A stretch of DNA of 64,000 bases, taken from positions 64,001 to 128,000 of IMG/VR virus record IMGVR_UViG_3300036770_004943; one strand, given 5' to 3'. Every line of letters begins with the position of its first letter. Within the stretch, counting starts at the first letter, position 1. Positions 9,694-62,869 of the stretch are shown here, one piece after another. The translations under genes and the position numbers were made by a program. The DNA comes from a virus (lineage: Duplodnaviria; Heunggongvirae; Uroviricota; Caudoviricetes). A model generated the notes under the pieces. The model saw only the letters and a program-made list of their open reading frames with translations, had not been told where the DNA came from and made no database searches.

Positions 9694-10452
9694 ATGGCAA
9701 AGAAAAAAGACCTTAAAGAACAGAACCCTAAGTTTATGATAGATTTAGTTGAAATCTTAGCGGAAAATGACCCATCGGTAACAAATAAATATTTACCGTT
9801 CATGATTAAACAAGCTGAAACTTGGGTTGATTGGCTTAAAGAGGAACTTAAAACCAACACATTCAAAGAAATGTTTGATATTGTAAAAGAGTTTGAGGAT
9901 TTATCTAGTAAAAATTTATTAGATAATAAAGACATCTATTCTTACGGCTCAAATCAAGAAATTGTTGATACCATTAAATTGGCACGTGAAAAAGTAACCA
10001 AGAGTCAGGTTAAAAAATTTGAAACTATTACTTTACACGAAGACGATAGATTTTTGGTACTCCAACCATTAACTTCTCGTAGTTCAAATGTTTATGGTAA
10101 ATCAACCAAATGGTGTGTTTCTTCTGACCAAAATGATTTTAAGAAATACTTTAACCAATACACTGAGAATGGTGTTCTTGTGTTTGTGATTGACAAATCA
10201 ATCAAAGAAGAACAAACTCGTGATAACATCTTCTCTAAGGTGGCCTTCCATAACGATAAAACCAAAACAGGTCATTCAGCAACTACAATTTGGGATTCAA
10301 AAGATGTTCAAGTTTCAGCTGTAGGTATGATGGAGTTGATGGAAATTATACCACAGGATGTAATGAAAGTGGTTAACACAACTCTTAAAGGTAAGACCAA
10401 TAAGGAACTTGCCAAAGAGAGAGGCATTAAAGATGATATCTACAAAGGGTAA
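9694..10452 (+). CDS. DPS..KY/YG..T.WC family protein, early leaderless copy
   Basis: NDPSVTNKYLPFM and VYGKSTKWCVSS are shared with ORFs 29769, 50084, 58880 and 61454. Confidence 0.75.
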   Translation: MAKKKDLKEQNPKFMIDLVEILAENDPSVTNKYLPFMIKQAETWVDWLKEELKTNTFKEMFDIVKEFEDLSSKNLLDNKDIYSYGSNQEIVDTIKLAREKVTKSQVKKFETITLHEDDRFLVLQPLTSRSSNVYGKSTKWCVSSDQNDFKKYFNQYTENGVLVFVIDKSIKEEQTRDNIFSKVAFHNDKTKTGHSATTIWDSKDVQVSAVGMMELMEIIPQDVMKVVNTTLKGKTNKELAKERGIKDDIYKG

Positions 10453-10468
10453 TCTTTAATCTTGATAG

Positions 10469-10834
10469 ATGGGAAGTATTTACAAAATTACTTCCCATTT
10501 TTATTTTTACCTTGTGATTAAAAAGAAAATAAAAAAACATCATCTTACTTATACGGAGGAGAGCCATTTGTTGGATATACCACACTTTGACTTAACCGAA
10601 GGAGCCACGATTGGTTACACTATTGCCCAAAACCTCACGATAGAAAACGTGGTAAATAATTGGCGGGTTAATTTAGGTGGGGAAGAAAGACTTCATTTAG
10701 ACTCAAATGGTGATATGAGAATAACTGGTGTGATGAAAGCATTAGGTTCGGTTAGATGGAATCAAGAGTTTCAAATACTACAATTTTGGGATGGGAACTC
10801 TTGGGTAAATTTAGTCAGCCAAGGCATCGTTTAA
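10469..10834 (+). CDS. hypothetical protein
   Basis: ORF follows 9694; start position uncertain. Confidence 0.4.
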   Translation: MGSIYKITSHFYFYLVIKKKIKKHHLTYTEESHLLDIPHFDLTEGATIGYTIAQNLTIENVVNNWRVNLGGEERLHLDSNGDMRITGVMKALGSVRWNQEFQILQFWDGNSWVNLVSQGIV

Positions 10835-11134
10835 AAACTGTCTAATTGTCCTTCTAACAATTGGTTCGGGGATGTTTGAAAAATCTTCTGAAATTTCAAA
10901 ATAAATTTTATTCACCAAATACTTCTTATGGTCTTCAATAAATCTAGGTTTATCATCGACAATAATATATTTTTTGTTTGGGAAAATGTCGTGGGTTGAC
11001 GGAAATTCCCATACACGATATTCTTTGATTAAAAAATTCATCAAACCTTTACTAATACCACCCAAATATAAAGGGTCAACCCAACTATAATCTTCTTCGG
11101 ATTCTTTTAATATTTTTTTAATTAATTTTCTCAC
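10811..11134 (-). CDS. late hypothetical protein with LKE leader
   Basis: MRKLIKKILKE|SEEDYSWV; late motif at 11138-11147. Confidence 0.65.
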   Translation of the reverse strand: MRKLIKKILKESEEDYSWVDPLYLGGISKGLMNFLIKEYRVWEFPSTHDIFPNKKYIIVDDKPRFIEDHKKYLVNKIYFEISEDFSNIPEPIVRRTIRQFLNDALAD

Positions 11135-11173
11135 ATTTATAAATATCCAATAAATTATGTTTATATTTGTGTT

Positions 11174-11410
11174 ATGAAATTTAAATCTTTAAAAGAACAG
11201 TATACTGAAATGATGGGTAATAAAATATCTGTTAGTCTTGAGGATTTAACGGATAATGAAAAAACCCTTATTGAGGCCGGATTTGATTTATTTTCCGAAA
11301 AAATGGAAGATATTAAAATTCTTAACGATGAAATTAGAAGAATTTCAATTGAATTAGCTAATTTAAAATCTTTTAATGAAGATTTGTTTAAAGATAGTGA
11401 TGAAGATTAA
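11174..11410 (+). CDS. early hypothetical protein
   Basis: TATATTTG at 11162-11169 immediately upstream. Confidence 0.6.
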   Translation: MKFKSLKEQYTEMMGNKISVSLEDLTDNEKTLIEAGFDLFSEKMEDIKILNDEIRRISIELANLKSFNEDLFKDSDED

Positions 11411-12099
11411 TTGACAATATATTTACCACCTTTGGATAAATTATCCTTTTCCCATAACGGTTGAAGATTATTTAATGACCAACAATCTTGAAAGTCTTTA
11501 TCGGTTGGTTCTTTAATATTAAAAGAAACCATTGGTTTAATGTGGTCGACATGCCATTGTCCATAGTTTTCCCAAGTCATATCTTTTACGAATTTAGATT
11601 CTAAATGTTTAATTAGTTCTTCCAAAGTATAAGGCAGTAAATCAAAAGTATTTTTATACTTATCGACATTTCTTTCTTTTAAACAAGTGTAGATGGCAGT
11701 TCTGGTATAACAAGCCAGTTTATAAGCCGGGTCAGAATCTTTTTTGGTTTTTTCGTAATGTCTTTTATATTCGTTTAATAATTCACGATTTTCTTCACGC
11801 CATTTAGCATGATATTCACGTAAATGATTACGGTTTTTTTCGGACCATATTTTGTGGTATCCGGATAATTTTTCTTTATTTTTATCTCTCCATTTTTTAT
11901 CAGCAATTTCTTTACCACCAGTCCATTTACGACCAGAGGGACCTAATTTAACACCTTTATTTTTAAAATTTCTTAAAATAATTGATTTATGGAACCCAAA
12001 CCTATCGGATAATGAAGGTGTACCGACATATTCATCGTTGTACAATCTTATCATTTCATTTAACACATCTTCTGGTATTTCTATTTTTTTCTTTCCCAT
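11407..12099 (-). CDS. free-standing HNH homing endonuclease
   Basis: WHVDHIKP...CWSLNNLQPLWEKDNLSK; basic repetitive N-terminus; own late motif at 12104-12112. Confidence 0.8.
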   Translation of the reverse strand: MGKKKIEIPEDVLNEMIRLYNDEYVGTPSLSDRFGFHKSIILRNFKNKGVKLGPSGRKWTGGKEIADKKWRDKNKEKLSGYHKIWSEKNRNHLREYHAKWREENRELLNEYKRHYEKTKKDSDPAYKLACYTRTAIYTCLKERNVDKYKNTFDLLPYTLEELIKHLESKFVKDMTWENYGQWHVDHIKPMVSFNIKEPTDKDFQDCWSLNNLQPLWEKDNLSKGGKYIVN

Positions 12100-12144
12100 A
12101 TAATATAAATATACCCGTATTACATATTATTGTAAATGGATTAT

Positions 12145-12172
12145 AAAAAAAGAGGGACTTAGTCCCTCTTTT
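12145..12172 (-). terminator. intrinsic terminator after the major capsid gene
   Basis: aaaagagggac-tta-gtccctctttt hairpin with a T tract on the minus strand. Confidence 0.8.
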
Positions 12173-12192
12173 CTATTATTTAAGATTACTTA

Positions 12193-13980
12193 TTAACGTA
12201 ATTCTCTAACGTCAAAAGTTCTCAATCCGTCTACTCTGATATGGCCGTAAAAGCGGTTGTTCACCATTTTTTTGGCGTAACGAGTCATGATACCTTTTAC
12301 AGGTACGAAGTTGAACGGATTGTACATTGTAGGAGTTAACTGCATCGGTACGTATGGAGCGTAGATGTAGCCAGTGTCTAACAATGACTTACCTTTGTGT
12401 CCAATGATAATTGAGTATGCTGGAGCGTAAGGGTCACGGTATACAGTGTAACGACCACTTAATGAACCTACTCTTTCAATACCCATGTTATACTGATCTT
12501 GTTCAGGAGCCGCGTTAGATACGTGGAAGTATTCTAAATCATCAAATACTGCTGATACTTCAGAAGATACAACTACGAAGTTAGCACCACCTCTTAAAGT
12601 TGATTTGTGAATTTGAGCTGAGATTTGGTTGATAGCGGTCATCAAAGTCTGATTCCAATCTTTTTGAGTGTAAGCAGTTGATTGAGGTAAACGCTTCCAT
12701 CCGTTGTAATCCCAACGTAATTGCCATGCTGCACCTTTTCTTAAGTCGATTAGGATTTCACGGTCAATTTCAGCCGCAACTTGTTCTGATAACAATGCTG
12801 TTAATTCAGCTTCAGCATCAATGTTGTGGAATGCACTAACGTCTTGTGCTAATTCAGGAGTCCATGTTGCTCTCAATTTTCTTTCAGTAACAGATACAGT
12901 TACAGATTGAAGTTCGAAAGAAACTTCACCCATTGCTGATTCAGCTTCAAGGTCAGAATATCTTCTCCAAGTTACTAACGGAGCAGAATCACAAATTGTT
13001 GTTCCAGTGTAGTCAGCACCGATGTAACCATCGAATGTATTAGCTCCACAAGAAACACAAACTGGGTGAGTTAAATCCAATTCAATATAAAGTTTTCCGT
13101 TAGGAGAACAAATATCACTGTATTGAACCATTGCTTTACCATATTTTTGTGTTACAACACGGAAAGGAATTGAGTCACCTGTAGCGAAAATAGTTTGACC
13201 GTTTGGATCTAAAACATCAGCTTGAGCAACTACAGTTAAAGATGCTAAGAAAGTCTCAGTATCCATTTCATTACCATCTGGAGTTGATAAACGACCAGCA
13301 TCGATAGATGAGAAACCGTTTAACTCAATGATTTGATGACGTAAAGAACCATCAGAAGCTGCTGGAGCTTTACCATCCATAAATTCCATACCATTTGTAC
13401 AAGCTGTCCAAGTTACACACTTAGCTGTATCATCAACAACTAATGTAATTTCACCTTTTGATTGATCGTACATTCCGTCATTGTAGAAAGCGTCATAAAG
13501 ATTCTTTAAACAATTGCTGTAAGTTGTAGGATCACATTCACTGATACAAGTCGCGATAAGTGGTTGTCCGTGTTTAGATGTACCACCGTTAACACCGTCG
13601 TTAAAATTAGTATCGTTTATTCTTTCAGAATACTTAGGAATGAAATAAAACAATTTACCGATAGGTAAATTTAAAGCCTGTACAGAAACGATGTCGTTAG
13701 CTAATAATTTAGAGAAAACACGTCTTACGATAGGAAACACAACTGTTTCGAAAGAACCAGAAGAACTAGCTTGTGATCCAACACCACCAGCTGTAGTAGT
13801 TTCGTTAATAAGAATTGACGCTTGATTTTCATATAACAAAGCGATGTTTTCTTTAATGTGGCCTTCAAGACCCTCTAGAAATCCTAATGATTCCCATTTG
13901 TTTACGGTTGCCTCACGGATTGCTTTTTGGTGTTTTAACCCGATGTTTCCAACCTCACCTGATTTTAATAGATATCCCAT
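12193..13980 (-). CDS. major capsid protein (T4 gp23-like)
   Basis: WESLGFLEGL, FPIVRRVF, RKLRATWTPELAQD, AEIDREI, GYIYAPYVP, GIMTRYA. Confidence 0.95.
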   Translation of the reverse strand: MGYLLKSGEVGNIGLKHQKAIREATVNKWESLGFLEGLEGHIKENIALLYENQASILINETTTAGGVGSQASSSGSFETVVFPIVRRVFSKLLANDIVSVQALNLPIGKLFYFIPKYSERINDTNFNDGVNGGTSKHGQPLIATCISECDPTTYSNCLKNLYDAFYNDGMYDQSKGEITLVVDDTAKCVTWTACTNGMEFMDGKAPAASDGSLRHQIIELNGFSSIDAGRLSTPDGNEMDTETFLASLTVVAQADVLDPNGQTIFATGDSIPFRVVTQKYGKAMVQYSDICSPNGKLYIELDLTHPVCVSCGANTFDGYIGADYTGTTICDSAPLVTWRRYSDLEAESAMGEVSFELQSVTVSVTERKLRATWTPELAQDVSAFHNIDAEAELTALLSEQVAAEIDREILIDLRKGAAWQLRWDYNGWKRLPQSTAYTQKDWNQTLMTAINQISAQIHKSTLRGGANFVVVSSEVSAVFDDLEYFHVSNAAPEQDQYNMGIERVGSLSGRYTVYRDPYAPAYSIIIGHKGKSLLDTGYIYAPYVPMQLTPTMYNPFNFVPVKGIMTRYAKKMVNNRFYGHIRVDGLRTFDVRELR

Positions 13981-14010
13981 TTTTATTTGTTTTTGTTTTT
14001 TTGTTATTTA

Positions 14011-15465
14011 TTATTTTTTATATGAGTACTCCCAAAGTTTTTTCATGTTTTGTAACTCAGGGTGTACAAATACGCTTGATTCATTGATTTGTGCTCCACT
14101 TGAAGCGGTTTTATTGATTTTCTCATCGATAGATTCCTTAATAGGTGTTTTACCGTTTGAGTATTCTTTAACAAGTTGTTTATAAATTGATTGAGACTCT
14201 TTTAAATCTTTAGCGGAATCTAATCTTTTTAAAATGTCTTGTTTTTCTTCTTTAGTGGTAGAGTTTTCAGTGAACAATCTTACAGCGTAAGTAAGATTGC
14301 TATTAAATACAGCCACTTCTTGAAGTTTCTTTCTGAATTGTTTAAGAGCGTCAACCATTTTTTCTTGAGTTTCTTTTAATTCAGTATTTTCATTTTCAAT
14401 AGAAGTAAGTTTTGTATTTAAATTTGTATTTTCTTTGATGAGTTTTGTGATTTGTGGAGTTGTCGATTCACCAACGTACAAATGTCTTGGTGCCGCTTTT
14501 GGTTTATCCAACCCTTTACGACCAAATCTTCTACCTGCACCCAAAGTACGAGACATGTAAGACATTTCATCTTCATCGTCTTGTTTACCCATTGATTTTT
14601 CTATAGCCATACCTCTTTTCTTTTCATAAGAAGAGATGTCATGGTCTTTATTTAAATCAGCTTTTTCTGGGTGTTTTAAACCACTTTTTTTGTAGTTCAT
14701 GTAAGAAGACATATCATCTTCAGAATCCATATAATCCATGTGATCTTCAGAATCCATATAATCCATGTAATCCTCATCTACAACAATTTCATAGATAACT
14801 TCACCAGAATCTTCAACACCCTCTTCAATTTCACCAGCTTCAACGCTAGTAACACCTCCAGTTGGGTTCATTTCGATTCTGTATTCAGAACCAGATTTGT
14901 TATCTTTTAAAGTGACCATACCATTGTCATTAACAACTTCAATTTCATCTTCAGGTCCCATTTTCTTAAAAACGGAAATCACATCAGGTAATTTATGATT
15001 TGTAAGGTCTTGAACCTCAACATCACCAGTTGTATCCATGCCCATGTCAAAGTCTAAATCCATTTCACCTTCTTCAGATTCATCACCTAAATCAAGATCC
15101 ATGTCTTCAGATTCGTCACCTAAGTCGATATCTAAATCTTCTTCTTCACCTTCACCCTCTTCAGTGTCAAAGTCTAAATCCATTTCACCTTCTTCAGATT
15201 CATCACCTAAATCAAGATCCATGTCTTCTTCCTCTTCATCTTCTTCAGTGTCAAGGTCGAGGTCAAGGTCTTCACCTTCCTCTTCTTCCTCTTCTTCTTT
15301 CAATCTTTTCGAACCAGTTAATGATTCCTTTACCATTTCTTCAATTTCTGAACTCATTGTTTGAGTCAGTATTTCTTTTGCGTTAGATTTGAAAGCGGCG
15401 TCGATTTGTTCAGCCTCTAAAAGAGCTTCCTCAATAATTGATTTCTTTTCGTTTGCCATTTTCAT
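14011..15465 (-). CDS. prohead core/scaffolding protein, highly acidic
   Basis: Directly upstream of MCP; D/E-rich middle region and coiled-coil C-terminus (LQEVAVFNSNLTY). Confidence 0.75.
   Translation of the reverse strand: MKMANEKKSIIEEALLEAEQIDAAFKSNAKEILTQTMSSEIEEMVKESLTGSKRLKEEEEEEEGEDLDLDLDTEEDEEEEDMDLDLGDESEEGEMDLDFDTEEGEGEEEDLDIDLGDESEDMDLDLGDESEEGEMDLDFDMGMDTTGDVEVQDLTNHKLPDVISVFKKMGPEDEIEVVNDNGMVTLKDNKSGSEYRIEMNPTGGVTSVEAGEIEEGVEDSGEVIYEIVVDEDYMDYMDSEDHMDYMDSEDDMSSYMNYKKSGLKHPEKADLNKDHDISSYEKKRGMAIEKSMGKQDDEDEMSYMSRTLGAGRRFGRKGLDKPKAAPRHLYVGESTTPQITKLIKENTNLNTKLTSIENENTELKETQEKMVDALKQFRKKLQEVAVFNSNLTYAVRLFTENSTTKEEKQDILKRLDSAKDLKESQSIYKQLVKEYSNGKTPIKESIDEKINKTASSGAQINESSVFVHPELQNMKKLWEYSYKK
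15045..15228. repeat. 64-bp direct repeat (15045-15108 and 15165-15228) in the scaffold gene
   Basis: Identical copies encoding EDMDLDLGDESEEGEMDLDFD. Confidence 0.85.
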
Positions 15466-15601
15466 TTTTTTAATTTAACGAATTATAGAATCCTGCATGT
15501 GTATGCAAGATTTTTAAATAAATATGTTTGCCTACAGCAAAGTGCGAGAAGTCAAGATAAAAAATGTAAAAAATTTAATTAAAAAATTAGATATTTATTA
15601 A

Positions 15602-16081
15602 TTGATGAAAGAAAGTATTAAAAAAATACTCAGAGAATACACTGAAAAATGGTCAAATCACCATGATTTTATGAAAAAGGTTGATTATGCACAGGAAAAA
15701 GCGATAGAGGATTCAGATTTTCCTGCTGAAACAGAAAAAATTGACCACATGAAAAATAAAATTAAAAAAAGAGTAGAAAAAGCTTACAAAGAGGTTACTG
15801 GTAAGGAACCTGTGAGTGATGATAATATTATTGTTAAAGTTGATGATAATATTAAAGCCGGTAAAATAGGATCATTCAAACACCCAGAAAGTAAAAAAGA
15901 CCTCGGGATTATGAAAGTACACCCCAAGGCCTTAAATGATATTAGTTATGTTGAGGACATAATTAAACACGAGTTAATTCATGCCGCTCATGGATTAGAA
16001 GACGAAGAAGCTAGAAACCACGGAGGTGTCTTTCAACAAGTCGCCGATAAAGTGGGTTTACCCAAAAAATATCGCCGTTAA
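15602..16081 (+). CDS. SprT-like zinc metalloprotease with LRE leader
   Basis: IIKHELIHAAH (HExxH) plus downstream HGGVF; MMKESIKKILRE; late motif at 15590-15599. Confidence 0.7.
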   Translation: MMKESIKKILREYTEKWSNHHDFMKKVDYAQEKAIEDSDFPAETEKIDHMKNKIKKRVEKAYKEVTGKEPVSDDNIIVKVDDNIKAGKIGSFKHPESKKDLGIMKVHPKALNDISYVEDIIKHELIHAAHGLEDEEARNHGGVFQQVADKVGLPKKYRR

Positions 16082-16311
16082 GTTTTAACAGGAACTTCAA
16101 TTACATCTTCGATTGGACTTTTAGTTGTACTTACAATTTCATAATCCATTACAGAATCTTTTAAATAAGTACGTGTACGAGCCTCAGCCTCAGTACAAGT
16201 CATTGCATCCACAAGGTACTGTGTTTTAATTTTTTTCATCTTACCATTACTTTCGTTGATGGTTTCAAATTCTACTTTTACTAAAAAGTATTTTGCTACG
16301 TTGTTATCCAT
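16078..16311 (-). CDS. DUF4494-like protein
   Basis: YFLVKV...KKIKTQYLVDAMTCTEAEAR resembles the Bacteroidota DUF4494 family. Confidence 0.65.
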   Translation of the reverse strand: MDNNVAKYFLVKVEFETINESNGKMKKIKTQYLVDAMTCTEAEARTRTYLKDSVMDYEIVSTTKSPIEDVIEVPVKT

Positions 16312-16403
16312 TTTTAAATTATTTTAAATCGTTATATAGTAATTTTATACAAAAAAAGGGGATATGTAAACTACAATCCCCTTTCTATTAACTAATTTAA
16401 AAA

Positions 16404-16937
16404 TTATTTTATCTGAAATGTTTGAGCAACTGTTGCTTTGTAATAAAAAGGTCCCCCACCTTTAAATAATTCATTACCAAAAATGATATTATTCTTTTTG
16501 ATTAAATTCTTGAGTTCGACATGAACAGCACCGTATTTATCATCCGATAACATAATTTTATTATGACTTTTACTAAGATACCAACCATAAACTGTTTGAG
16601 TAGCACAAAAAATGTTAAAATCTTTTATAACATCTTCGTAAAATAGATTATAATATTTTTTAATAAAAATTTTATATCCATCAGTTATTAAAAAACCATT
16701 ACCATACGCAACATTTTCCGAATAGGTATAACCATGACTATGGTAGATACTATCATTCATAATCATATTATTAGAATGTTTTACACAATTTTTGTAAAGT
16801 TCATCGGACCAAACTAAACCGTTTTTACCATTTTTAATACGATATTGGTTTATATAACCAAAAGTTAAAGAGTCTAAATTCTGACTAAACAAAAATGTGT
16901 TAACAAAAACAAATATAATTGTTATAAGATTTTTCAT
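16404..16937 (-). CDS. secreted CAP/SCP-domain protein (start corrected to MKNLITII)
   Basis: Signal peptide; INQYRIKNG..L.W...HSNNM..HSH..ENVA..W..S..H..IML pattern; TATATTTG promoter on the minus strand at 16942-16949. Confidence 0.65.
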   Translation of the reverse strand: MKNLITIIFVFVNTFLFSQNLDSLTFGYINQYRIKNGKNGLVWSDELYKNCVKHSNNMIMNDSIYHSHGYTYSENVAYGNGFLITDGYKIFIKKYYNLFYEDVIKDFNIFCATQTVYGWYLSKSHNKIMLSDDKYGAVHVELKNLIKKNNIIFGNELFKGGGPFYYKATVAQTFQIK

Positions 16938-16985
16938 AAAACAAATATACAAAAAAACCACCAATAAAGGTGGTTTTATAAAAAA

Positions 16986-18500
16986 TTATTGATGACTAAA
17001 ATCTAAAAATTTTGCTATTTTTTTCTGAGAGAAACGAGGACAATCAACCTTACTACACTTCTTTTTAAATTTCTTTTTAATTAAAGGTTTGTGTTTTGGG
17101 TTTCTTTTAACTTTAACATGAGTGTGTTTAATTTTTTTATCTATGGTTTTAACCAAAGTATAAGTATTCTTCTCAATGACTTTCATTTCTGGCTCTATGG
17201 AACCAATTATAGTGTCTTGATAAGTTGCGTTAATTGTTATTTTAACGTATCTATAAGGTGCTGTTTCTTTACGTGCTAATTCTCTTTCAGATTTAGACAT
17301 TGTTTTGTTATAAAGGTTTGGTCCTTGGTCAGGTTTAACATTTACACTTACACTATCAACATCAGTAAAGTATTTAGAAACACTTTCAGCTCTTAATTCA
17401 GCTAATTTTTGATTACCCATTTTAATAGGTTCTCTATCTGTTGAAGATTCTATCATGACAGATTCTATTTGACCACCCACTTGTTCAATTGAATCTTTTA
17501 TAGCTTGGAGAGATTCAATACCTTCTGGTGATAATTGATATCCACCAGTAACAAACATACCGTCACTATTAAGACTAAAATCTAAAGATTCTGTATAAAC
17601 TATTACTGTGTCATTACCTTTTAATGTATCACTAGTTGTTTCAACACCGGTTAAAGCATAACCTTGTTTTAGTTTTGAAGCTAATTGCTTATCATCTTTA
17701 ACTTTTACTGTTGAAGTAACCCTGCCGTGTCTACCTTCTAGATTTTCTAAAGCTTTATCAGCATTTTTAAAAATTTTATCTTTTACTTCAGGTGATAAAT
17801 TTTTTGTAATCTTATTTAAAGTCGAAGTATCTTGAAGAGTTGATTCTATTTTATTTTTAACGTCTTCTTTAGATATCACATTTTTTGCTGTTTGTGCCTG
17901 ACTTTGATTCAACCCAACACCAGTTAATAAAGCAATACCTAAAAGAACGTCTTTCCACCCTTCAGTTAATAGGGTTTCGTTTAACTGTTGTTCTGTTAAA
18001 TTTACTTTAAAAAAAAAAGATTCGTCTAAATCTCTTGGGGTTGGTCTACCACCTCTAAGGTTACCTAAATTTTTCTTTTCAAAATTAATAATAACTTTTG
18101 ATAAGTTTTTCATAGGCCCTTCTACTTGGGAAAGAAAATCGTCGATACCCGTTTTTAATTCATCATCAATAACAGATTCAGAACCGATTTCATTTAAATG
18201 GTTTAAAATTTCAGATAAAGCATTGTAAGAACCTTTTAAATGACCTGCTTGACCGCCGGCATACATTGCAAACATTGAAGGATCATCGTAACCACCAACC
18301 TCATTTATAGTATTTTCTTTGATGTTTTGTTTTTTCTTAACATCTAAAACACATCTTTCGTATTTTTCTTTTTGGGATTTGGTCCAGTCACTCCTTTCGG
18401 TAGAACCTATTTTTTCACCAATACTCGCTGTACAAACGGCCCAAGGATTAACTTTTTTACCTCTCTTTTTAGCTTCCAATATTAATTTATCTATATTCAT
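16986..18500 (-). CDS. multi-module late protein with hydrophobic segment and OmpA-like C-terminal domain
   Basis: FVTGGYQLS...IESSTD...NQKLAELRAESVSKYF (OmpA_C-like); several [IL]xE junctions. Confidence 0.6.
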   Translation of the reverse strand: MNIDKLILEAKKRGKKVNPWAVCTASIGEKIGSTERSDWTKSQKEKYERCVLDVKKKQNIKENTINEVGGYDDPSMFAMYAGGQAGHLKGSYNALSEILNHLNEIGSESVIDDELKTGIDDFLSQVEGPMKNLSKVIINFEKKNLGNLRGGRPTPRDLDESFFFKVNLTEQQLNETLLTEGWKDVLLGIALLTGVGLNQSQAQTAKNVISKEDVKNKIESTLQDTSTLNKITKNLSPEVKDKIFKNADKALENLEGRHGRVTSTVKVKDDKQLASKLKQGYALTGVETTSDTLKGNDTVIVYTESLDFSLNSDGMFVTGGYQLSPEGIESLQAIKDSIEQVGGQIESVMIESSTDREPIKMGNQKLAELRAESVSKYFTDVDSVSVNVKPDQGPNLYNKTMSKSERELARKETAPYRYVKITINATYQDTIIGSIEPEMKVIEKNTYTLVKTIDKKIKHTHVKVKRNPKHKPLIKKKFKKKCSKVDCPRFSQKKIAKFLDFSHQ

Positions 18501-18559: not shown

Positions 18560-19342
18560 TTATTTTAAAAATTTATTTAACCCGTCAATTATTTTTTGAT
18601 TTCTATTACCAGTTAAATCAACAAAGGATATTGTAGTTGGTTTTACATCTTCCATTAAATTCCATTGACAAGAATATCCATTACAACCTTGAGTAGATTC
18701 GGTAAATGTTTTTAAATCACCAGCATCTGTAGAAATCCAAGAACCCGGAGTTGATGGAGACGTTACGATATCCCAACAAATTAATTCAAAGTCATCTTGA
18801 ACTACGTTTTTACCATTTTCAACTTTAAGGGATCCAACACCACGAGATGAAATACCAACAGTCCAACCTTTTCTAATCATGTTAACCACTTTATCACCAA
18901 CCGATGAAATAATACCTAATTTGTGGTAACCTGGTGTAGTATCTAATTCCATTTCACCCATAAGAGTTTTACCTTCCCACCATGTTTTAGTAATTCTGTG
19001 GGAAACTCTGTCAGCATCAATGATAGAAGACTCGGGGTGATTTAATTCACCTAATGAAGTCCCCATTTTAATATATTCTTGATATCTAACATTTTCTCTT
19101 TCAAGAATTTCTTTTGGGTATAATCTACCATTCTTGTTTTCAATACCCCATTTTTGAAGTACTGCGTAAACAATTATTGTATCTGGTAAACTACCGTCTT
19201 TTCCTATATTTGTACCTGATTTAAATTCTCTGATTAAATCAGCATTTTTTGTACCTTTATACGTTAAATCAGGGGAAATGTATCCCGCATCGTATTCTAC
19301 TAAGATACCTCTACCTGTTTCGTTAGCTTTTAAAATTTTCAT
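18560..19342 (-). CDS. prohead core protease (T4 gp21-like)
   Basis: NKNGRLYP, GELNHP, RVSH, GISSRGVGS, WDIVTSPS; late motif at 19361-19369. Confidence 0.92.
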   Translation of the reverse strand: MKILKANETGRGILVEYDAGYISPDLTYKGTKNADLIREFKSGTNIGKDGSLPDTIIVYAVLQKWGIENKNGRLYPKEILERENVRYQEYIKMGTSLGELNHPESSIIDADRVSHRITKTWWEGKTLMGEMELDTTPGYHKLGIISSVGDKVVNMIRKGWTVGISSRGVGSLKVENGKNVVQDDFELICWDIVTSPSTPGSWISTDAGDLKTFTESTQGCNGYSCQWNLMEDVKPTTISFVDLTGNRNQKIIDGLNKFLK

Positions 19343-40715: not shown

Positions 40716-41439
40716 AATATTTCCATTTAAACTTACCAGCCGTTTCTTGTTTACCTTTACAAACCGCTGATATATTGTATATTTTTAAAAAATTTTCAGC
40801 CTCTAAAATAGAATCCCATATTTTTACTATTTTATCATCTATTGTTAATTGTACAACTTTTTTTCTAGATTTAGAAGGCCCATTAGATACCCCTTTTTTA
40901 ATTTTTGAAAGTTTTTCTGAAAAACCTTTTGGTTTTGGTTTTTTCATTTTATTTCTTGTTTCTTGGGTAATAATTTTACCTTTTTGTGCTTCTGAGATTT
41001 TTTTTCTAACTTCCTCAGTTTGAGACCAACCATTTAACATTTTTATTTTTTGATACTCAGATATTTTTTGTTTCCACTCACGATGTTTTTTATCAGCCTC
41101 TTCTTTACCATATTTTTCTAACCAAGTTTTATACCTACCTTTTTTTATAAGAGAATTGTACCCTAATTTTCTATCACCTTCTTTACTACCATCACTTATA
41201 TTATAACCTATTTTTCTATCTGTTGATTTATAATAAAGTATCCAAAAAATTTCTCTTTCATTTAACATCTCTTCACTATCACAAACCTCAATCACCTCTT
41301 TTAAAAAATTATTTTTACCATATTTTTTAACAGCTCTTTTTAATTTTTTACCGGAACCTAAATAATTTGGGTTATTATTTTTGTCTTGTCCGATATAAAT
41401 TTTATTGTTTATCAGATTTGTTGTTTTGTATATTACCAT
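40708..41439 (-). CDS. GIY-YIG homing endonuclease, free-standing upstream of thyA
   Basis: VIYKTTN..NNKIYIGQ..YLGSG..GYN; TEEVRKKIS; late motif at 41453-41460. Confidence 0.88.
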   Translation of the reverse strand: MVIYKTTNLINNKIYIGQDKNNNPNYLGSGKKLKRAVKKYGKNNFLKEVIEVCDSEEMLNEREIFWILYYKSTDRKIGYNISDGSKEGDRKLGYNSLIKKGRYKTWLEKYGKEEADKKHREWKQKISEYQKIKMLNGWSQTEEVRKKISEAQKGKIITQETRNKMKKPKPKGFSEKLSKIKKGVSNGPSKSRKKVVQLTIDDKIVKIWDSILEAENFLKIYNISAVCKGKQETAGKFKWKYYE

Positions 41440-44795: not shown

Positions 44796-45083
44796 TTACC
44801 CCTTTTTCTTTTTCTGTCCATAAGGAATCGTCCTTGTTGGCATATAATCTCTAAATTTAGTATCCTTTAAATTTCCTGGGATTTTTGGAAAATCCATTCT
44901 ATCAGTGTGTAGTTTAAAAAATCTGTCAAATTCTGTTTTAAGAAGTTCCATAACTTCTGTATGAGTTAGATTTGGGTTACTTTTTTTAATGTCTATCATT
45001 GCATCGGTGAAACTAGTTTGAACATCACCAAAACCTTCTCTAAGTAATCTTTTAGTTTTATTAAAATTATCCATTTTGAACAT
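44796..45083 (-). CDS. late hypothetical protein with LRE leader
   Basis: TKRLLRE|GF; overlaps the end of the DHH gene. Confidence 0.55.
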   Translation of the reverse strand: MFKMDNFNKTKRLLREGFGDVQTSFTDAMIDIKKSNPNLTHTEVMELLKTEFDRFFKLHTDRMDFPKIPGNLKDTKFRDYMPTRTIPYGQKKKKG

Positions 45084-49908: not shown

Positions 49909-50087
49909 GTAGAATTAAAGAACAATTTATCGACGAAATTAATTGTGTAATTGAAGACTACGATTATCAATACACAGAATGGCTTAAACAACAAGAGGAT
50001 AAAGCTATTGTAGATTTTTACGAGGAAAATAAAGAAAGGTTTGAGGGTGAAAAAATATTTAATCTAACAAATACCTACCCTTTTTAG
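49905..50087 (+). CDS. early hypothetical protein
   Basis: ATGA-coupled to the previous ORF. Confidence 0.55.
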   Translation: MSRIKEQFIDEINCVIEDYDYQYTEWLKQQEDKAIVDFYEENKERFEGEKIFNLTNTYPF

Positions 50088-51778
50088 TCTGTTGGGAATA
50101 TGTAGTATTTATCACCATCTATTGTTACATAATCGTAACTACCAGTCCTACTAAAATATTCATAATCTAAATCATCTGCCATATCATTAATTAATTCGGT
50201 TTCGTCAATACCGACCAAACCGTTTTTAATTGCATTTTTATCTAAACCAGTTTTACTACTCCAGTAACCAAAGTCTTCCAACCAATCTAATGGGTCGTCC
50301 GTTAAACGACTAACATAATGTTCGTAATAATCGTTATAAAGTCTATCTTTAATGGATTCTAAAAGTTTATCGTTGGTTTTTTCTATAGACTCATTTTCGG
50401 CCTCCAATTCTGATAATTCTTGCTCTTCGTCTTCATCTAATTCATCATATCTACCCATCATTTCGTCGATTTCTTCTTGATTACTTTCCATGATTGATTG
50501 GTTAACTTCCCACTCTTCAACCATGACTTTAGTTTCTTTATCTAACCTTTTTCCTTCGTGTAGTATATCATCATTATCTAAATCCCCTGCATAACTTTCA
50601 GCCATATCACGTGCAACACCTCTTGGGTCATTGATGTATATATATTTTTCAGGGTTATTACCGATAGCTTCCCAAACGCCTAAATCACTAATGTAATTTT
50701 CCGCCCATTCGTGTTTAGCTCTTTCAACTTCATCCGTTGTCGCTACAGCATAATCATCACTACCGTCTACGGTATAAACACGCATACCGTAATAACCGTA
50801 ATTTCTTTGTTCAACTTCTTCAACTTCTTCTTCACTTAAAGCCAAATGTTCAACCAAAGCTTGGATGTAAGGATCCTCAACGTAAGCCATGTTGGCATAC
50901 ATTTCATCCATTTTTGTTTGCATGTATTTTAGAATAACTCCCTTAACAGATGTTGGAACCGTATCTAAATAATCATAACCAGAAGAACCTCTACTCGCAA
51001 TATTAGTGTCTTCAGCATTCCATAATTTAATTTTATCAGTATTTAAAGTCCAAACCGAGGGGTTACCTGGTGTTGAGGTGACATATTTATTTACTTTTTT
51101 GACATATGGTATTTGCCAAGCAACTTTATATTCAGGGTTATCAGAATTTTTACTTTTATTAATCACATAAATTAAAAATTTACGGTCGGTTTCACGTTTA
51201 AAATGTGAATCAGTTTCTTTTGATGTTGTACACCATTTAGTTCCGGCACCATAAACACAAGAAGCACCCCAAGTTTTAGGTCTAACCACTAACCAATTAC
51301 CATCTTCGTAAATTTTGTCAACACCTTTTTTAGCCTCTTTTTCTTCGTCTTTTCTTTGTTTTCTTTCTTTTGCTTGGGCTAAATCACTACCTAAGTAATG
51401 AATCATATCACTATCAGTAAATTTATATTGATAAAGGTCTGTAGTACCGTATTTTTCACCAGAAACTTCATCATTATAGACCATATATGGTAATAATTCG
51501 TGAAATTTTTTAACTAACGTCATTAAAAAGCCAGCAATCTCACCTGCTTCTGGTGATTTAAACTGCATTGTTTCGTCTAAAATATCTTCGACTGATTGCA
51601 TCGTTGGTTCGTGTACCATAGCCTTAACCAACCATTCTAAATATTTTTGATTACCTGATGGGTCATTTTTTACAAAATAATCCACAATTTCAGAACTAAC
51701 GTCAGGGAATTTTTTTCTAACATCATCAACCCGATTTTCTGATAAAACTTTTCTTATATTTTCTAACGTGATTTTCAT
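50084..51778 (-). CDS. DPSGNxKY/YGxGTxWC family protein, late copy with acidic C-terminal extension
   Basis: VLSE|NRVDD, DPSGNQKYLEWL, ASCVYGAGTKWCTT. Confidence 0.75.
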   Translation of the reverse strand: MKITLENIRKVLSENRVDDVRKKFPDVSSEIVDYFVKNDPSGNQKYLEWLVKAMVHEPTMQSVEDILDETMQFKSPEAGEIAGFLMTLVKKFHELLPYMVYNDEVSGEKYGTTDLYQYKFTDSDMIHYLGSDLAQAKERKQRKDEEKEAKKGVDKIYEDGNWLVVRPKTWGASCVYGAGTKWCTTSKETDSHFKRETDRKFLIYVINKSKNSDNPEYKVAWQIPYVKKVNKYVTSTPGNPSVWTLNTDKIKLWNAEDTNIASRGSSGYDYLDTVPTSVKGVILKYMQTKMDEMYANMAYVEDPYIQALVEHLALSEEEVEEVEQRNYGYYGMRVYTVDGSDDYAVATTDEVERAKHEWAENYISDLGVWEAIGNNPEKYIYINDPRGVARDMAESYAGDLDNDDILHEGKRLDKETKVMVEEWEVNQSIMESNQEEIDEMMGRYDELDEDEEQELSELEAENESIEKTNDKLLESIKDRLYNDYYEHYVSRLTDDPLDWLEDFGYWSSKTGLDKNAIKNGLVGIDETELINDMADDLDYEYFSRTGSYDYVTIDGDKYYIFPTD

Positions 51779-51795: not shown

Positions 51796-51809
51796 ATATT
51801 TATAAATAT
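51796..51809. promoter_or_regulatory. palindromic bidirectional late motif ATATTTATAAATAT
   Basis: Perfect 14-bp palindrome, 17 and 15 nt from two divergent start codons. Confidence 0.65.
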
Positions 51810-58663: not shown

Positions 58664-58883
58664 TATTTTATTCTACACAGGTCTTTCAATGGTGGGATTC
58701 CCAACCATTATTTTATTTTTCTTTATTTTTTTACATATATCTTCAGAAAAAAAAGAAATAAATGAAGAGGTTAGAAAAGTATATGATACTGTAACCGTTA
58801 AAAAAGTGGTAAAAATTTACGATACAGTTTACGTAAAAAAAACAAAATGGATAGAAAAAGTAAAAACCGACACAATTAATTAA
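58647..58883 (+). CDS. small membrane-anchored protein
   Basis: One transmembrane helix; DTV, DTV and DTI motifs in the exposed tail. Confidence 0.55.
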   Translation: MKKTLDILFYTGLSMVGFPTIILFFFIFLHISSEKKEINEEVRKVYDTVTVKKVVKIYDTVYVKKTKWIEKVKTDTIN

Positions 58884-59857
58884 CTGTGTGTTTCATAAAA
58901 TTTACCTATCTTATCTTTATGATAATCTTCAGCCCTCATAACCCCCGACCAAAAAGCGTGAGCTGATTCTAAACCGTAAACATCTTTTACCATGTCGGAT
59001 ATATTGTGAGCATCAATTTCCCCGTCTGAGGCATCGTAAAAAACCATATCACCGTCAATGTTAATATGAAGAGCCACTTTACTCATATCAAATTCTTCGT
59101 CTAAATAATCTAAAAAATAATCAGAAATATCTTTAATTGATTTAGTTTTAGGGATAAAATAAAATAAAGAACTTGTATTACTTTGATACCTATTAAACTG
59201 AACGTCTTCTTTTGCTGTCGTACACCAACGAGTTCCGGCACCGTAAGTACAAGAAGACCTGTGTGTTGTTGGTATAATAACTAACCAATAGTCATTATCC
59301 ATTAATTTAATGGACTCTTTTTTGATATCACTTTTAGACGGCAATTGTTTAATTGCGTTAGTTATTTCAAACAATAAATAATGGTCATAATATGAATTAA
59401 TATCTTTTGGATTTTTCATTATATTTTCTAATTCAGCTATCGGGTATCTAAATTTAAAATAAGGTGATGGAGTACCATAAGAAATTGAAAATTCTTTTGG
59501 GTTAGATATTGCACTCCAAGCCACAACCTTATCGATATTTTCTTTAGTTAATTTATTTTGTAAATTATGAAAGTTAGTAATCCCTGTAATAAGGTTTTCA
59601 ATTAACATACTAGCAACGTTAAAGGGGTGGAATTTACCTGTGGCTTTTTTAATTTCTTTTAAGGCCCACATTAAATATTTTTGGTTTCCTGAAGGATCAG
59701 AATTTACCAAATCTACAAACCACTCAGGCATTTTTCTACCTTCTTTATAAGATTGTGGTATTAAATAATCTTGGAAATCTTTAATAACAAAAGATTTAGC
59801 ATCATCTAGTCTTCCTTCCGATAAAATTTGTTCCGATATAATTTTTCTAACTAACAT
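58880..59857 (-). CDS. DPSGNxKY/YGxGTxWC family protein, late copy
   Basis: ILSE|GRLDD, DPSGNQKYLMWA, SSCTYGAGTRWCTT; late motif near 59869-59877. Confidence 0.75.
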   Translation of the reverse strand: MLVRKIISEQILSEGRLDDAKSFVIKDFQDYLIPQSYKEGRKMPEWFVDLVNSDPSGNQKYLMWALKEIKKATGKFHPFNVASMLIENLITGITNFHNLQNKLTKENIDKVVAWSAISNPKEFSISYGTPSPYFKFRYPIAELENIMKNPKDINSYYDHYLLFEITNAIKQLPSKSDIKKESIKLMDNDYWLVIIPTTHRSSCTYGAGTRWCTTAKEDVQFNRYQSNTSSLFYFIPKTKSIKDISDYFLDYLDEEFDMSKVALHINIDGDMVFYDASDGEIDAHNISDMVKDVYGLESAHAFWSGVMRAEDYHKDKIGKFYETHS

Positions 59858-59911
59858 GTTTTCTAATTAATAAATATTCTATATCTTTGTAATAATAAAT
59901 AACTTACATTA

Positions 59912-60181: not shown

Positions 60182-60186
60182 AGGGG

Positions 60187-61044
60187 TTATTCTTTTTCAA
60201 TAACAATTTTTCTTTTACCACCTTCAGAAGTATCGTAAATAACGAAATGAACTTCAGGGTACATAGTACTTAATTCATTTTCAAGAAAATCTTGTGCTGC
60301 TTTAACATTTCTTTTGTCATCATCAGAAAATCCTAAAGATATTTTTTTGTATTTACCGGCAACCATATGTTTTTTAACACCATCAAGTAATTTTTTAACA
60401 AAATTTTCAATCGCTACTTTCTTAGCGTGTTCAGGATTTGACGCTCCGCCTTTAACTTCAAGACCAAATCTTTCACCAAATTCTTCAGAAGAAACAGGAT
60501 AAAATTCCCCTCTTTCATCTAAATACAAATCTAATAATTGTGTGGCATTAAGCCCCTGAGTTAAACTACTTGGTAATTCTTTTTGAATGTTTGTAAACAT
60601 CATTCTTTTTTCGTCGTCACTTAAAACCATTTTAACAAAAAGTTTAACCCCCTTTTTTAAAGTTTCAGGACTATGACCTCTAGCCGTATTGATAGCGAAA
60701 GGGTTTGCGTGTGTTAAAGCCTCAATAAATTTTTTGTAACTTGGTGCAAAACTACCATTATGTATAGCCTTTTCAGCGTCAACCAAGAAAGATTTGTTAT
60801 CAGTAAAGTCAGCAAATGAATTTGGTGTTGTTCTATAATTAGGGTCTGACCTAAAATGAGCAAACTCTTCAGTTGAAACTTTTACGGGGACCCAACTACC
60901 GTTTTCATTTTTTTCCATGTTAACTTTAGTGGGCATTCTTAAAATATTATCATCCCAATCAAAAACATAAGACCTTAATTTATTTTCAAGTAGTGATTTT
61001 CTAAGTTTTTTATATTGTGTTTCAGTAATTAAAAATTTTTTCAT
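60187..61044 (-). CDS. HAD-superfamily phosphatase with leader
   Basis: SLLE|NKLRSYVFDWDDN (DxD), INTARGH, KK, FSDDDKRN; late motif near 61059-61068. Confidence 0.75.
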   Translation of the reverse strand: MKKFLITETQYKKLRKSLLENKLRSYVFDWDDNILRMPTKVNMEKNENGSWVPVKVSTEEFAHFRSDPNYRTTPNSFADFTDNKSFLVDAEKAIHNGSFAPSYKKFIEALTHANPFAINTARGHSPETLKKGVKLFVKMVLSDDEKRMMFTNIQKELPSSLTQGLNATQLLDLYLDERGEFYPVSSEEFGERFGLEVKGGASNPEHAKKVAIENFVKKLLDGVKKHMVAGKYKKISLGFSDDDKRNVKAAQDFLENELSTMYPEVHFVIYDTSEGGKRKIVIEKE

Positions 61045-61104
61045 CTAAATTTGTTTATTTATAAATATTACATATCTTTGTATTATAATTAAAGATTTAC
61101 ACAC

Positions 61105-61431
61105 ATGAACTATTCGGATTATACAATTAATGAAGTTTGGAAAAATGTATCAACAGAAGAAATTATTAAAATAAAAAAAGCTGCAAAAAAACTTGTTATT
61201 TTAAATAACGAATGGTTTTTATTTCATTTGTTTATGTTGGTGTTTTCACTACCGTCTTTTGTGTTAATGTTTAGTAATTTATCTTTTGGTTTTAATTGTT
61301 TTGTAATAAACCTTGTGATTTACACACCTATATGGTTTTTCTATCTTAAAATAAAACACGTTAACACAGAGTTATTGGAACAGGCGAAAAAAAGAATAGA
61401 AGAAATGGATATTGTCTTAAAGTATCGTTAA
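61105..61431 (+). CDS. early membrane protein (two TM helices)
   Basis: TATCTTTG at 61073-61080; two hydrophobic segments. Confidence 0.6.
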   Translation: MNYSDYTINEVWKNVSTEEIIKIKKAAKKLVILNNEWFLFHLFMLVFSLPSFVLMFSNLSFGFNCFVINLVIYTPIWFFYLKIKHVNTELLEQAKKRIEEMDIVLKYR

Positions 61432-61433
61432 AT

Positions 61434-61455
61434 AAAAAACCCCATAGGGGTTTTT
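61434..61455. terminator. bidirectional intrinsic terminator
   Basis: aaaaacccc-ata-ggggttttt. Confidence 0.7.
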
Positions 61456-62869
61456 ATCTTATTTTTTGTAGGAAAACACCGTTTATATTAACACCTGTGA
61501 GTGTTATGGTTTGATTACCGGTTTCAAAATCATCATCTGGACCTAAATTTAATTTAGGTAACAGTTTATCTGTTTTTTTTAAGTCGATTGTATTATAAGC
61601 TTTATAAAAATCACTAGTATAATCACGGTATTGTCTAATTCTTTTCGGTACGTAAACGGTATAGACTCCTGCATCATCTTGGGGTAATTTAGTTCCTTTG
61701 GTTCCCGATCCGAACCATGTGGCAATTACATAACCTTCGTCACCACGTATATAACCGTAACCACTAGCTAATAATTTAACTTTATCACCTTTTCTAAGAC
61801 GTACAGGGTTTTCATTTTTTTCGTAAGGTATGTCACCTTTTTTCTTTTTAGCTATTGAGACTACAACCTTTTTTTCAACAAATCTTAAAAGTTGTTGTAA
61901 TTTTTCTGGTAAATTAGACTCTTTTATAAACTCATCCCAATTAATTTCATCATCTTCAGCATTCCAATAAGTTGTTTTTGAACCACCTTTATATAAAGCA
62001 GATAAACCACCCCTAGGATTTCTAGGAAACCTTTCAGCTGGTTTATCGACATAACCATAAAATAATTTAACTTCTTTATGCCAAGGTAAATTAATATTAA
62101 CATCTTGTGGTTCCGATCCCATTGGAATTTTAGTATGTATCGCCCATTTTCGGTTTGCAGCTTTACTAATAACAAAAATCAAATACTCACCATTGTCAGT
62201 GTAATTTTTAAAATAACTATTATCACCTCTCATAGTAACACACCATTTAGTGTTAGCACCATAAGCACAAGAAGATTGATGTGTTTTAGGGGAAACAAAT
62301 AACCATTCATTATCTTCATAAATTTTGGTTACATCTTTCGCTAATTCTTTTTCTTGAGATTGTAATTTTTTATTGGATAAAGCGTCTTTTAAAGTATTAT
62401 AGTTATATCTATTAATATCTTTAATGGGTAATGCATTAACAAATCGATGAAAATATTTTACCTCTTCAATTAAAGCGTCGGCTAAGTCTTTAAGAAAATA
62501 TTTTACCTCTATATTATCAAAATTAGTTTTTTTAACTCTGCTACTAAACTCATTGGCTAAAATATTTTGACAAATTGGTGGTTTTGTTGGATCACCCTTT
62601 TCATCAGGATAATCATGATTATCCTCTAACCACTGATATATGGTTGATGTGTTTGAGGCCCATTCCATACCTGTAATCTCGTTAACCCCTTCAGAATCCC
62701 AAGCGTTTTTACACATCCATTCAAGATACTTGTTATTACCTGATGAATCTCCAGCTGATAAATAATCAATAAATTTTGGTGGGAGACAAGGGTATTTATC
62801 CTTTGCCTGTTGTATTCTATTCTCGGTTAAGAGTTGTTCTAATATAATATATTTAAAAATATTTTTCAT
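61454..62869 (-). CDS. DPSGNxKY/YGxxTxWC family protein, late copy
   Basis: LLTE|NRIQQ, DSSGNNKYLEWM, SSCAYGANTKWCVT; late motif near 62878-62886. Confidence 0.75.
   Translation of the reverse strand: MKNIFKYIILEQLLTENRIQQAKDKYPCLPPKFIDYLSAGDSSGNNKYLEWMCKNAWDSEGVNEITGMEWASNTSTIYQWLEDNHDYPDEKGDPTKPPICQNILANEFSSRVKKTNFDNIEVKYFLKDLADALIEEVKYFHRFVNALPIKDINRYNYNTLKDALSNKKLQSQEKELAKDVTKIYEDNEWLFVSPKTHQSSCAYGANTKWCVTMRGDNSYFKNYTDNGEYLIFVISKAANRKWAIHTKIPMGSEPQDVNINLPWHKEVKLFYGYVDKPAERFPRNPRGGLSALYKGGSKTTYWNAEDDEINWDEFIKESNLPEKLQQLLRFVEKKVVVSIAKKKKGDIPYEKNENPVRLRKGDKVKLLASGYGYIRGDEGYVIATWFGSGTKGTKLPQDDAGVYTVYVPKRIRQYRDYTSDFYKAYNTIDLKKTDKLLPKLNLGPDDDFETGNQTITLTGVNINGVFLQKIR

Follow-up and report, generated by a model that had tools for sequence, protein, structure and literature searches.

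We analysed a 64,000-nucleotide (nt) stretch of viral DNA (Caudoviricetes), hereafter the window, which corresponds to bases 64,001-128,000 of the IMG/VR virus contig IMGVR_UViG_3300036770_004943 (130,210 bp). The contig is ~40% complete according to CheckV, implying a genome of roughly 300 kb, and has a GC content of ~30%. The window encodes a T4-type head and packaging module together with five open reading frames (ORFs) whose products share an N-terminal core with an invariant Trp-Cys pair. We refer to these ORFs as paralogs 1 to 5 and to the wider family as the Trp-Cys family. Paralog 1 (ORF 9694; 9694-10452(+)) encodes 252 amino acids (aa), paralog 2 (ORF 29769; 29769-32585(-)) 938 aa with the core at residues 1-260, paralog 3 (ORF 50084; 50084-51778(-)) 564 aa, paralog 4 (ORF 58880; 58880-59857(-)) 325 aa with extra inserts in the helical part of the core, and paralog 5 (ORF 61454; 61454-62869(-)) 471 aa. 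The core is followed by C-terminal tails of 35, 688, 290, 35 and 153 aa, respectively. No sixth copy was found in the rest of the 130-kb contig.

An earlier note on this DNA had described the five ORFs as sharing a two-part core, and the description holds. BLASTP is significant for 10 out of 10 paralog pairs (E = 6e-13 to 9e-30, 23-38% identity), with similarity restricted to the N-terminal core (~220-320 aa); the five ORFs are true paralogs. Alignment with MAFFT yields 23 invariant columns, including D-x-S...K-Y-L, F(H), D...Y, P, S, Y-G, T, W-C and I-x-K. The motifs quoted earlier, FH, KDINxY and S-C-x-Y-G-x-x-T-[KR]-W-C among them, are found in all five proteins, with slight variants of DPSGNxKYL in ORF 9694 (DPSVTNKY) and ORF 61454 (DSSGNNKY). 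The S-C...W-C loop lies at 32064-32096(-) in paralog 2. In the corresponding loop of ORF 9694 (SNVYGKSTKWC, 10084-10116(+)), Asn replaces the first Cys, and a Cys besides that of the invariant W-C is indeed present in four copies.

To place the paralogs in a wider context, we built a profile from the five cores and searched representatives of 50% identity clusters in a space of 5.8 billion proteins. The profile matches 8,233 representatives at E<=1e-3, 4,085 at E<=1e-10 and 259 at E<=1e-30. The best 120 matches are all labelled 'hypothetical protein', bar one with an automatic Joint Genome Institute (JGI) label, and all but one are without a Pfam domain. Within PHROGs, all five paralogs match phrog_17056 (E 1e-11 to 4e-6) and three also match phrog_28193, both of 'unknown function'. 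Two short peptide patterns alone recovered at least 549 IMG/VR loci, many of them on contigs of 100-320 kb, whereas 185,579 cellular species gave 12 loci, mostly on short contigs of metagenome-assembled genomes. The Trp-Cys family is almost only viral and, with more than 8,000 clusters but neither a Pfam or NCBIfam model nor a solved structure, is one of the largest uncharacterised virus-only families. Other jumbo-phage contigs are multi-copy as well, with 8, 4, 3, 3 and 2 copies: the contig with eight is 318 kb long and 96% complete, the four copies belong to a 321-kb genome that has terminal repeats, and the partial contigs hold 2-3. Cultured carriers exist as well: Salicola phage SCTP-2 with seven copies, the Pseudomonas PA5oct/MIJ3 group with one and Caulobacter phage CcrBL9 with one. 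Some metagenomic proteins join 2-5 modules in tandem and reach 1,844 aa.

Two of these occurrences have a noteworthy setting. At 30-42 kb of the SCTP-2 record, six of the seven copies lie within 12 kb, interleaved with a gene for an RpoH-like sigma factor, and one SCTP-2 copy holds two in-frame TAA stops. The five-module protein of 1,844 aa is encoded on an 18-kb metagenome contig of the European Nucleotide Archive (1-17973), where the neighbouring genes have Cas6, Cas7fv-like and DEAD-helicase domains and may form a phage- or element-borne CRISPR-Cas-type cluster.

An AlphaFold2 model of paralog 2 residues 1-260, computed from a 73-sequence alignment, has a mean predicted local distance difference test score (pLDDT) of 93.9 and falls into three parts. 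The first is a three-helix bundle (residues ~3-54) that contains DPSGNxKYLxW, the second a helical linker with FH and KDINxY, and the third an alpha/beta domain of ~125 aa (residues ~133-260) in which the elements run strand-strand-helix-loop(W-C)-helix-strand-strand-strand-helix-helix. A separate model of the alpha/beta domain (residues 133-260; 31806-32189(-)) has a pLDDT of 92.7 and a predicted template modelling score of 0.85. The equivalent domain is encoded at 9991-10353(+) in paralog 1, 50939-51364(-) in paralog 3, 58988-59344(-) in paralog 4 and 61910-62362(-) in paralog 5. All five carry a G-x-x-[TS]-x-W-C loop together with the conserved P, S, Y, K and D positions.

We then counted conservation over 299 domain instances from 263 proteins, using paralog 2 numbering. 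The W173-C174 pair, whose conservation in homologues had been set beforehand as one of two points on which the proposal could fail, is present in 296 of 296 ungapped instances. It is followed by G168 (292), P158 (276), Y167 (272), S164 (270), C165 (262), K209 (256), D227 (247) and K199 (238). C165 is missing from whole clades, namely a clade of leaderless proteins described below, the tandem-module proteins and the PA5oct group. An obligatory Cys-Cys pair, as in a disulfide or a metal site, is therefore unlikely, and by its conservation C174 stands alone as the candidate key thiol.

Searches for a known fold returned little. The five proteins have no meaningful match in Pfam, NCBIfam or PADLOC. 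Searching the PDB by sequence profile brought up chance calmodulin-type matches only (E>0.07), and searching it by structure with Foldseek yielded none at E<=0.001, whether the query was the whole core or just the alpha/beta domain. With the exhaustive structural aligner VIA-align, for which the best background Z is typically 7-8, the solved structures best matching the alpha/beta domain are almost all GNAT acetyltransferases, at a below-background Z of 5.0-6.5 over ~90-105 residues with a root mean square deviation of ~4 Å. The match covers only the N-terminal two thirds of a GNAT, and GNAT motif A (Q/R-x-x-G-x-G/A), which binds acetyl-CoA, is not conserved in the consensus of the 73-sequence domain alignment. 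Residues 5-57 align with UBA/CUE-like bundles at Z 7-8, a common fold at background level. Neither the GNAT nor the bundle matches were used as evidence, and a weak Foldseek row for the EH domain of ZorC (probability 0.63-0.75) was likewise set aside. With the PDB search by Foldseek empty and the structural aligner at background level, no well-characterised non-catalytic fold was matched. In the ESM Atlas and the AlphaFold DB the domain matches uncharacterised viral proteins, with template modelling (TM) scores of 0.70-0.82 in the Atlas, many of which carry DUF4116, WG, leucine-rich (LRR) or ankyrin repeats.

The earlier note had found the motif loosely reminiscent of PcfJ, and this likeness stands in part. 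The PcfJ-like domain PF14284, named after pcfJ of the Enterococcus faecalis plasmid pCF10, is likewise an alpha/beta domain and comparable in size, and in both an invariant Cys sits in an x-C-[VT] context behind two strands and a helix; both families also occur on mobile elements and phages. PF14284 is matched by 9 of 73 homologues (best E 6.6e-6), and Foldseek pairs the Trp-Cys domain with several 'PcfJ-like protein' entries of the AlphaFold DB (probability 0.80-0.96, TM 0.41-0.46). However, hmmscan with PF14284 matched none of the five window proteins at E<=1. Running its hidden Markov model on the genome gave only residues ~106-209 of paralog 2, at 15.4 bits against a Pfam gathering threshold of 25 bits, and no match in the other four. 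A Pfam scan of ten divergent homologues gave no PcfJ match. Compared by hhalign with 14 genuine PcfJ domains, a Flavobacterium-type set of low diversity, the family stayed below 1% probability at several settings.

The two families also differ in motif and architecture. PcfJ has an invariant His-Cys (H-C-V motif) where the Trp-Cys family has an invariant Trp at the His position, and the Trp-Cys family, unlike PcfJ, adds an N-terminal DPSGNxKYL helical module and a leader of its own and is confined almost wholly to viruses, whereas distant PcfJ-like proteins are found on plasmids and chromosomes. Because the PF14284 and Foldseek links are weak but recurrent, while hhalign is null and Trp stands in for His, we consider PcfJ to be probably a distant relative of the Trp-Cys family, and not the family to which these proteins belong. 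A literature search found no functional study of PcfJ, and surveys of polyvalent proteins and of jumbo phages are silent on it.

All paralogs except ORF 9694 begin with a putative propeptide of 13-16 residues. In paralog 2 it spans residues 1-13 (32547-32585(-)) and ends L-L-E before S-R; in paralog 3, residues 1-14 (51737-51778(-)), L-S-E before N-R; in paralog 4, residues 1-14 (59816-59857(-)), L-S-E before G-R; and in paralog 5, residues 1-16 (62822-62869(-)), L-T-E before N-R. Across 65 homologous N-terminal modules the leader is 6-25 residues long (median 14). Numbering from the putative cut, P4 is L, I or V (one T), P3 is L (49) or I (16), P2 is any of 11 different residues, P1 is E in 65 of 65, P1' is G, N or S, and P2' is R or K (one V). 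The T4 protease gp21 cuts C-terminal to the Glu of L/I-X-E and strips virion proteins of N-terminal propeptides 7-65 residues long, and in the 10-residue capsid-targeting sequence of T4 IPIII positions 8 and 10 govern processing (PMC9026906). These two positions correspond to P3 and P1. To judge from these residue preferences, the leader pattern is the cleavage motif of a T4-type prohead protease; whether the leaders are in fact cut by such an enzyme we regard as evenly balanced.

The window contains the protease that this pattern calls for. A T4-type prohead protease of the Peptidase_S77 family (gp21-type; 97.6 bits, cut-off 27) is encoded at 18560-19342(-) and is predicted to be the enzyme that trims the paralog leaders, and a T4 gp23-type (Gp23-family) major capsid protein (235 bits) with I-N-E at residues 58-60 is encoded at 12193-13980(-). 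The leader is absent from ORF 9694 and from a broad clade of relatives (~240-410 aa), which begin with M-[AS]-[KR] exactly at the P1 position; this leaderless clade has also lost the first Cys.

A different N-terminal sequence recurs elsewhere in the window. Two otherwise unrelated ORFs, 45067-46509(-) (480 aa) and 60187-61044(-) (285 aa), have an identical N-terminal K-K-F-L-I-T-E-T with an I-T-E site. Both have the upstream motif ATATTTAT, described next, and they may carry a second type of capsid-targeting leader.

The promoter-like motif ATATTTAT lies upstream of paralog 2 (32591-32598(-)), paralog 3 (51802-51809(-)), paralog 4 (59870-59877(-)) and paralog 5 (62878-62885(-)). It has further sites, for example at 19362, 27839 and 29743 (all (-)), and in total 33 sites are observed against 15.3 ± 3.8 expected. 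Besides the four leader-bearing paralogs, the protease, portal and terminase genes have the motif upstream, while paralog 1 lacks it. A host-type (sigma-70) early promoter considered upstream of ORF 9694 is not supported, as its 9 of 12 matches are no better than those of shuffled sequences.

Evidence from virions comes from phage PA5oct. Its protein EST35_0205 (QCG76086.1, 482 aa) is annotated 'structural protein, ESI-MS/MS', and 93 virion-linked products were reported for this phage by electrospray ionization tandem mass spectrometry (ESI-MS/MS) (PMC7318152). EST35_0205 is 61% identical to its orthologue MIJ3 gp46, which in turn matches the family profile with an hhalign probability of 99.4% (E 3.6e-21). 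These proteins share DPTSNQxYL, KKDINQY and GTRWC with the Trp-Cys family, over a core that is ~25% identical. The EST35_0205 gene directly follows the large terminase homologue and stands among genes for structural proteins detected by mass spectrometry, just as paralog 2 adjoins the terminase. The PA5oct member differs from the window proteins in being single-copy, in lacking the first Cys and in having a different N-terminus and an unrelated tail.

The arrangement resembles that of the capsid-targeted internal head proteins of T4-type phages. There too, a short N-terminal leader ends in L/I-x-E, the same genome encodes an S77 prohead protease and a Gp23 capsid protein, and several unrelated mature parts carry one kind of leader. 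Known T4 cargo includes the anti-restriction protein IPI and the ADP-ribosyltransferase Alt (PMC9026906). Unlike the T4 internal proteins and Alt, to which they have no sequence or fold similarity, the window proteins have a large shared module, reach 938 aa and are acidic to neutral rather than basic. Giant phages of the phiKZ type (phiKZ, 201phi2-1, SPN3US) are also described as having many paralogous head proteins that are trimmed after Glu by the prohead protease and enter the host (PMC5694885, PMC7411985, PMC10052503, PMC9026906). Their ejection and inner-body proteins belong to different families, and the cleavage logo may differ.

Since the four paralogs carry a leader typical of T4-type head-loaded and trimmed proteins, they are probably injected with the DNA. 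Virion delivery of four members, as the earlier note had suggested, is plausible given the L/I-x-E leader and S77 protease, the shared ATATTTAT and the PA5oct homologue in virions, and we lean modestly towards virion association of the leader-bearing paralogs. Our preferred reading of the family goes further and merits a little less than an even chance: head-packaged, protease-matured and injected proteins that would combine paralog-specific tails with a shared module of unknown chemistry. The four leader-bearing paralogs (29769, 50084, 58880 and 61454) would be made late as precursors. Their 13-16-residue leader would act like the T4 capsid-targeting sequence and bring the protein into the prohead core, where the S77 (gp21-type) protease of the phage would remove it. 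The mature protein would then share the capsid with the DNA and reach the next host by ejection. ORF 9694 has neither leader nor ATATTTAT and begins at the predicted mature N-terminus, so under this proposal infected cells would also make the module directly. The Trp-Cys domain would most likely bind or modify a host or phage macromolecule through its invariant Cys. The tails would direct each paralog to its own target, being acidic, basic or absent in the window and, in relatives, consisting of ankyrin, LRR, HEAT-like, WG or DUF4116 repeats or of peptidoglycan hydrolases. Targeting, cleavage, ejection and any catalysis are thus steps that we infer.

Several observations weigh against the packaged and injected role, and some of them would suit proteins that never enter the capsid. 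The putative leader lies within a confidently predicted helix 1 (residues 3-22), which spans the cleavage site, and L-x-E-G-R could therefore be a structural motif. Some tandem-module proteins read A-G-R or A-S-R at this place, their internal modules keeping the helix but sometimes lacking the Glu, and L/I-x-E is short and common by chance in a proteome rich in K, E, L and I. Virion detection comes from a single proteomic observation of one distant homologue, without the first Cys and with another N-terminus. In addition, ATATTTAT, a putative late promoter, sits only ~5-25 nt before the start codons. This is a very short distance for a -10 element and could imply leaderless or very short-leader mRNAs. 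Regarding the chemistry, the domain alignment has no conserved His or acidic partner beside the Cys that would mark a known thiol-enzyme site, and no fold match points to a chemistry. Thiol catalysis by the Trp-Cys domain seems to us less likely than not.

The proteins might instead be intracellular enzymes or regulators that are not packaged, with L-x-E-G-R being simply the first helix of the domain and the PA5oct detection reflecting lineage-specific recruitment or co-purification. Besides the helix, the tandem modules and the single detection, this would account for one paralog and a whole clade without a leader, and for distant PcfJ-like proteins on plasmids and chromosomes, where no capsid exists. 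Yet the combination of a strict L or I at P3, a free P2, an invariant Glu at P1 and a small P1', placed 6-25 residues from the Met, resembles a protease site more than a helix surface. Moreover, the leaderless clade starts exactly at P1, and four paralogs have a promoter-like motif in common with head genes. We regard a purely intracellular role as quite unlikely.

The genomic setting raises another alternative, in which the proteins are head-assembly or head-core (scaffold or 'inner body') parts that build or fill the capsid or organise the DNA, with no role after injection. Residue conservation would then reflect the demands of folding or packing. Paralog 2 stands in the packaging and head module, immediately upstream of the large terminase gene (609 aa; 27893-29722(-)), which is followed by the portal gene (25864-27804), and it stands beside terminase and portal in the 318-kb relative as well. 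The PA5oct homologue adjoins a terminase homologue in the same way, the leader and S77 protease suit T4 core proteins equally, and the paralogs are old and stable (see below), as expected for structural parts. Copy number nevertheless varies from 1 to 8 among jumbo phages, and other relatives do not keep the gene beside the terminase. An assembly role does not easily explain a paralog that has neither leader nor late motif, while repeats of the ankyrin, LRR and HEAT type, which are binders, and peptidoglycan hydrolase tails resemble host-directed cargo. The invariant Trp-Cys and the invariant or near-invariant Gly, Lys and Asp also exceed the conservation usual in filler proteins. On this balance a head-core function appears unlikely. 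A small terminase, considered for paralog 2 from its position directly upstream of the large terminase, was rejected, given a multi-copy family, a PA5oct homologue in virions and the absence of this adjacency in other relatives.

In the preferred reading of injected proteins, targeting falls to the tails. The earlier note had them diverging completely after the core, with extensions from almost none to roughly 600 aa. Between paralogs this is correct, as the five tails have no mutual similarity, and the range is right except that the longest tail is nearer 690 aa. Within orthologues, however, the long tails of 688, 290 and 153 aa persist end to end at 27-60% identity; both 35-aa tails have little or no detectable similarity to those of orthologues. 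The 688-aa tail of paralog 2 is acidic (net charge -39), the 290-aa tail of paralog 3 strongly acidic (isoelectric point (pI) 4.06, net charge -51) and the 153-aa tail of paralog 5 basic (pI 9.6). None of the window tails has a Pfam match. Among relatives, 93 of 101 tails are without a Pfam match, the remainder including LRV/HEAT, WG and ankyrin repeats and an M23 peptidase, and one further relative has an M15_4 peptidase tail. Apart from contig-end fragments, the paralog 2 tail is found only in full-length proteins of ~920-950 aa.

A maximum-likelihood tree of 73 cores requires five separate origins for the window paralogs. Four of them fall in strongly supported clades (97/94 to 100/99), each with orthologues of equal total length; the clade that unites ORF 9694 with leaderless orthologues has support of 97/94. 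Orthologues measure 249-288 aa for ORF 9694 (252 aa), 921-961 aa for ORF 29769 (938 aa), 546-570 aa for ORF 50084 (564 aa) and 300-322 aa for ORF 58880 (325 aa). For ORF 61454 (471 aa), whose orthologues are not among the aligned rows of the tree, same-length relatives (448-471 aa) were taken from the profile search. Five separate old clades, same-length orthologues and conserved long tails argue for stable sub-functionalisation and not for rapid diversification. The paralogs are an ancient, stable, sub-functionalised set and not a fast-diversifying array, and to call them a diversified effector family, as had been done, overstates the case. The part in host takeover or anti-defence that the earlier note proposed for them is conjectural.

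A constant module with variable tails could also be a non-catalytic adaptor that holds cargo tails in the capsid, for example at the portal, the core or the DNA, with the Trp-Cys loop as a binding surface. A comparable arrangement is the MuF head-protein domain of polymorphic phage toxins. The M23 and M15 peptidoglycan hydrolases among the variable tails fit such a role, as do the lack of a recognisable catalytic constellation and the resemblance of the N-terminal bundle to small protein-binding bundles such as UBA/CUE, although these are a common fold. Almost no tail is present, however, in the paralogs of 252 and 325 aa and in many relatives, which implies that the module must do something by itself. 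Tandem proteins moreover join 2-5 modules with no cargo between them, and the paralog 2 tail is never found apart from the module. We assign the adaptor a low probability.

A bolder version of the preferred, injected-protein reading would cast the Trp-Cys module as a new thiol-dependent enzyme with two modes of use by jumbo phages, through leader-tagged copies that are injected and through a leaderless copy made in the cell. The injected copies would act before any phage gene is expressed, and the leaderless copy, which lacks the first Cys, would be made early. Acidic DNA-mimic-like tails, basic tails or repeat-binder tails would aim the same chemistry at host or defence targets, and the tandem proteins of 2-5 modules would be polyproteins cut by the prohead protease into several effectors. 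Taken as a whole, we hold this version to be improbable.

Except for T4 and the phiKZ group, little is known of what giant-phage heads contain besides DNA and of what these proteins do during the first minutes of infection. If the leader is a capsid-targeting tag removed by the protease, a simple rule would allow injected proteins of uncultured T4-type jumbo phages to be predicted from sequence, and the leader would also be a natural targeting tag for cargo packaging.

The remainder of the window holds other features of interest. A 5-kb segment gave no megablast match among GenBank phages. A search of sequencing runs listed no RNA run; the DNA runs listed are subsurface metagenomes, which may be the source of the sequence. 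Between the prohead protease and capsid genes, ORF 16986-18500(-) (504 aa) starts with M-N-I-D-K-L-I-L-E and contains an OmpA-type peptidoglycan-binding domain (36 bits, cut-off 27), which is unusual in a head module. In the 318-kb contig, the closest complete relative, the large terminase matches as residues 1-204 and 201-606 within a single 1,071-aa frame (126549-129704). This suggests an intein or some other in-frame insertion, which the 609-aa terminase of the window does not have. A thymidylate synthase ORF (39456-41439(-), 419 aa) matches its PHROG profile in two stretches, and its start overlaps an ORF for a homing endonuclease of the GIY-YIG/HNH type; this may be an insertion-bearing thyA. 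Finally, ORF 42222-44738(+) (838 aa) encodes a homologue of the ClpB/Clp-type AAA+ 'ATP-dependent protease' (phrog_4871, E 1.6e-265).

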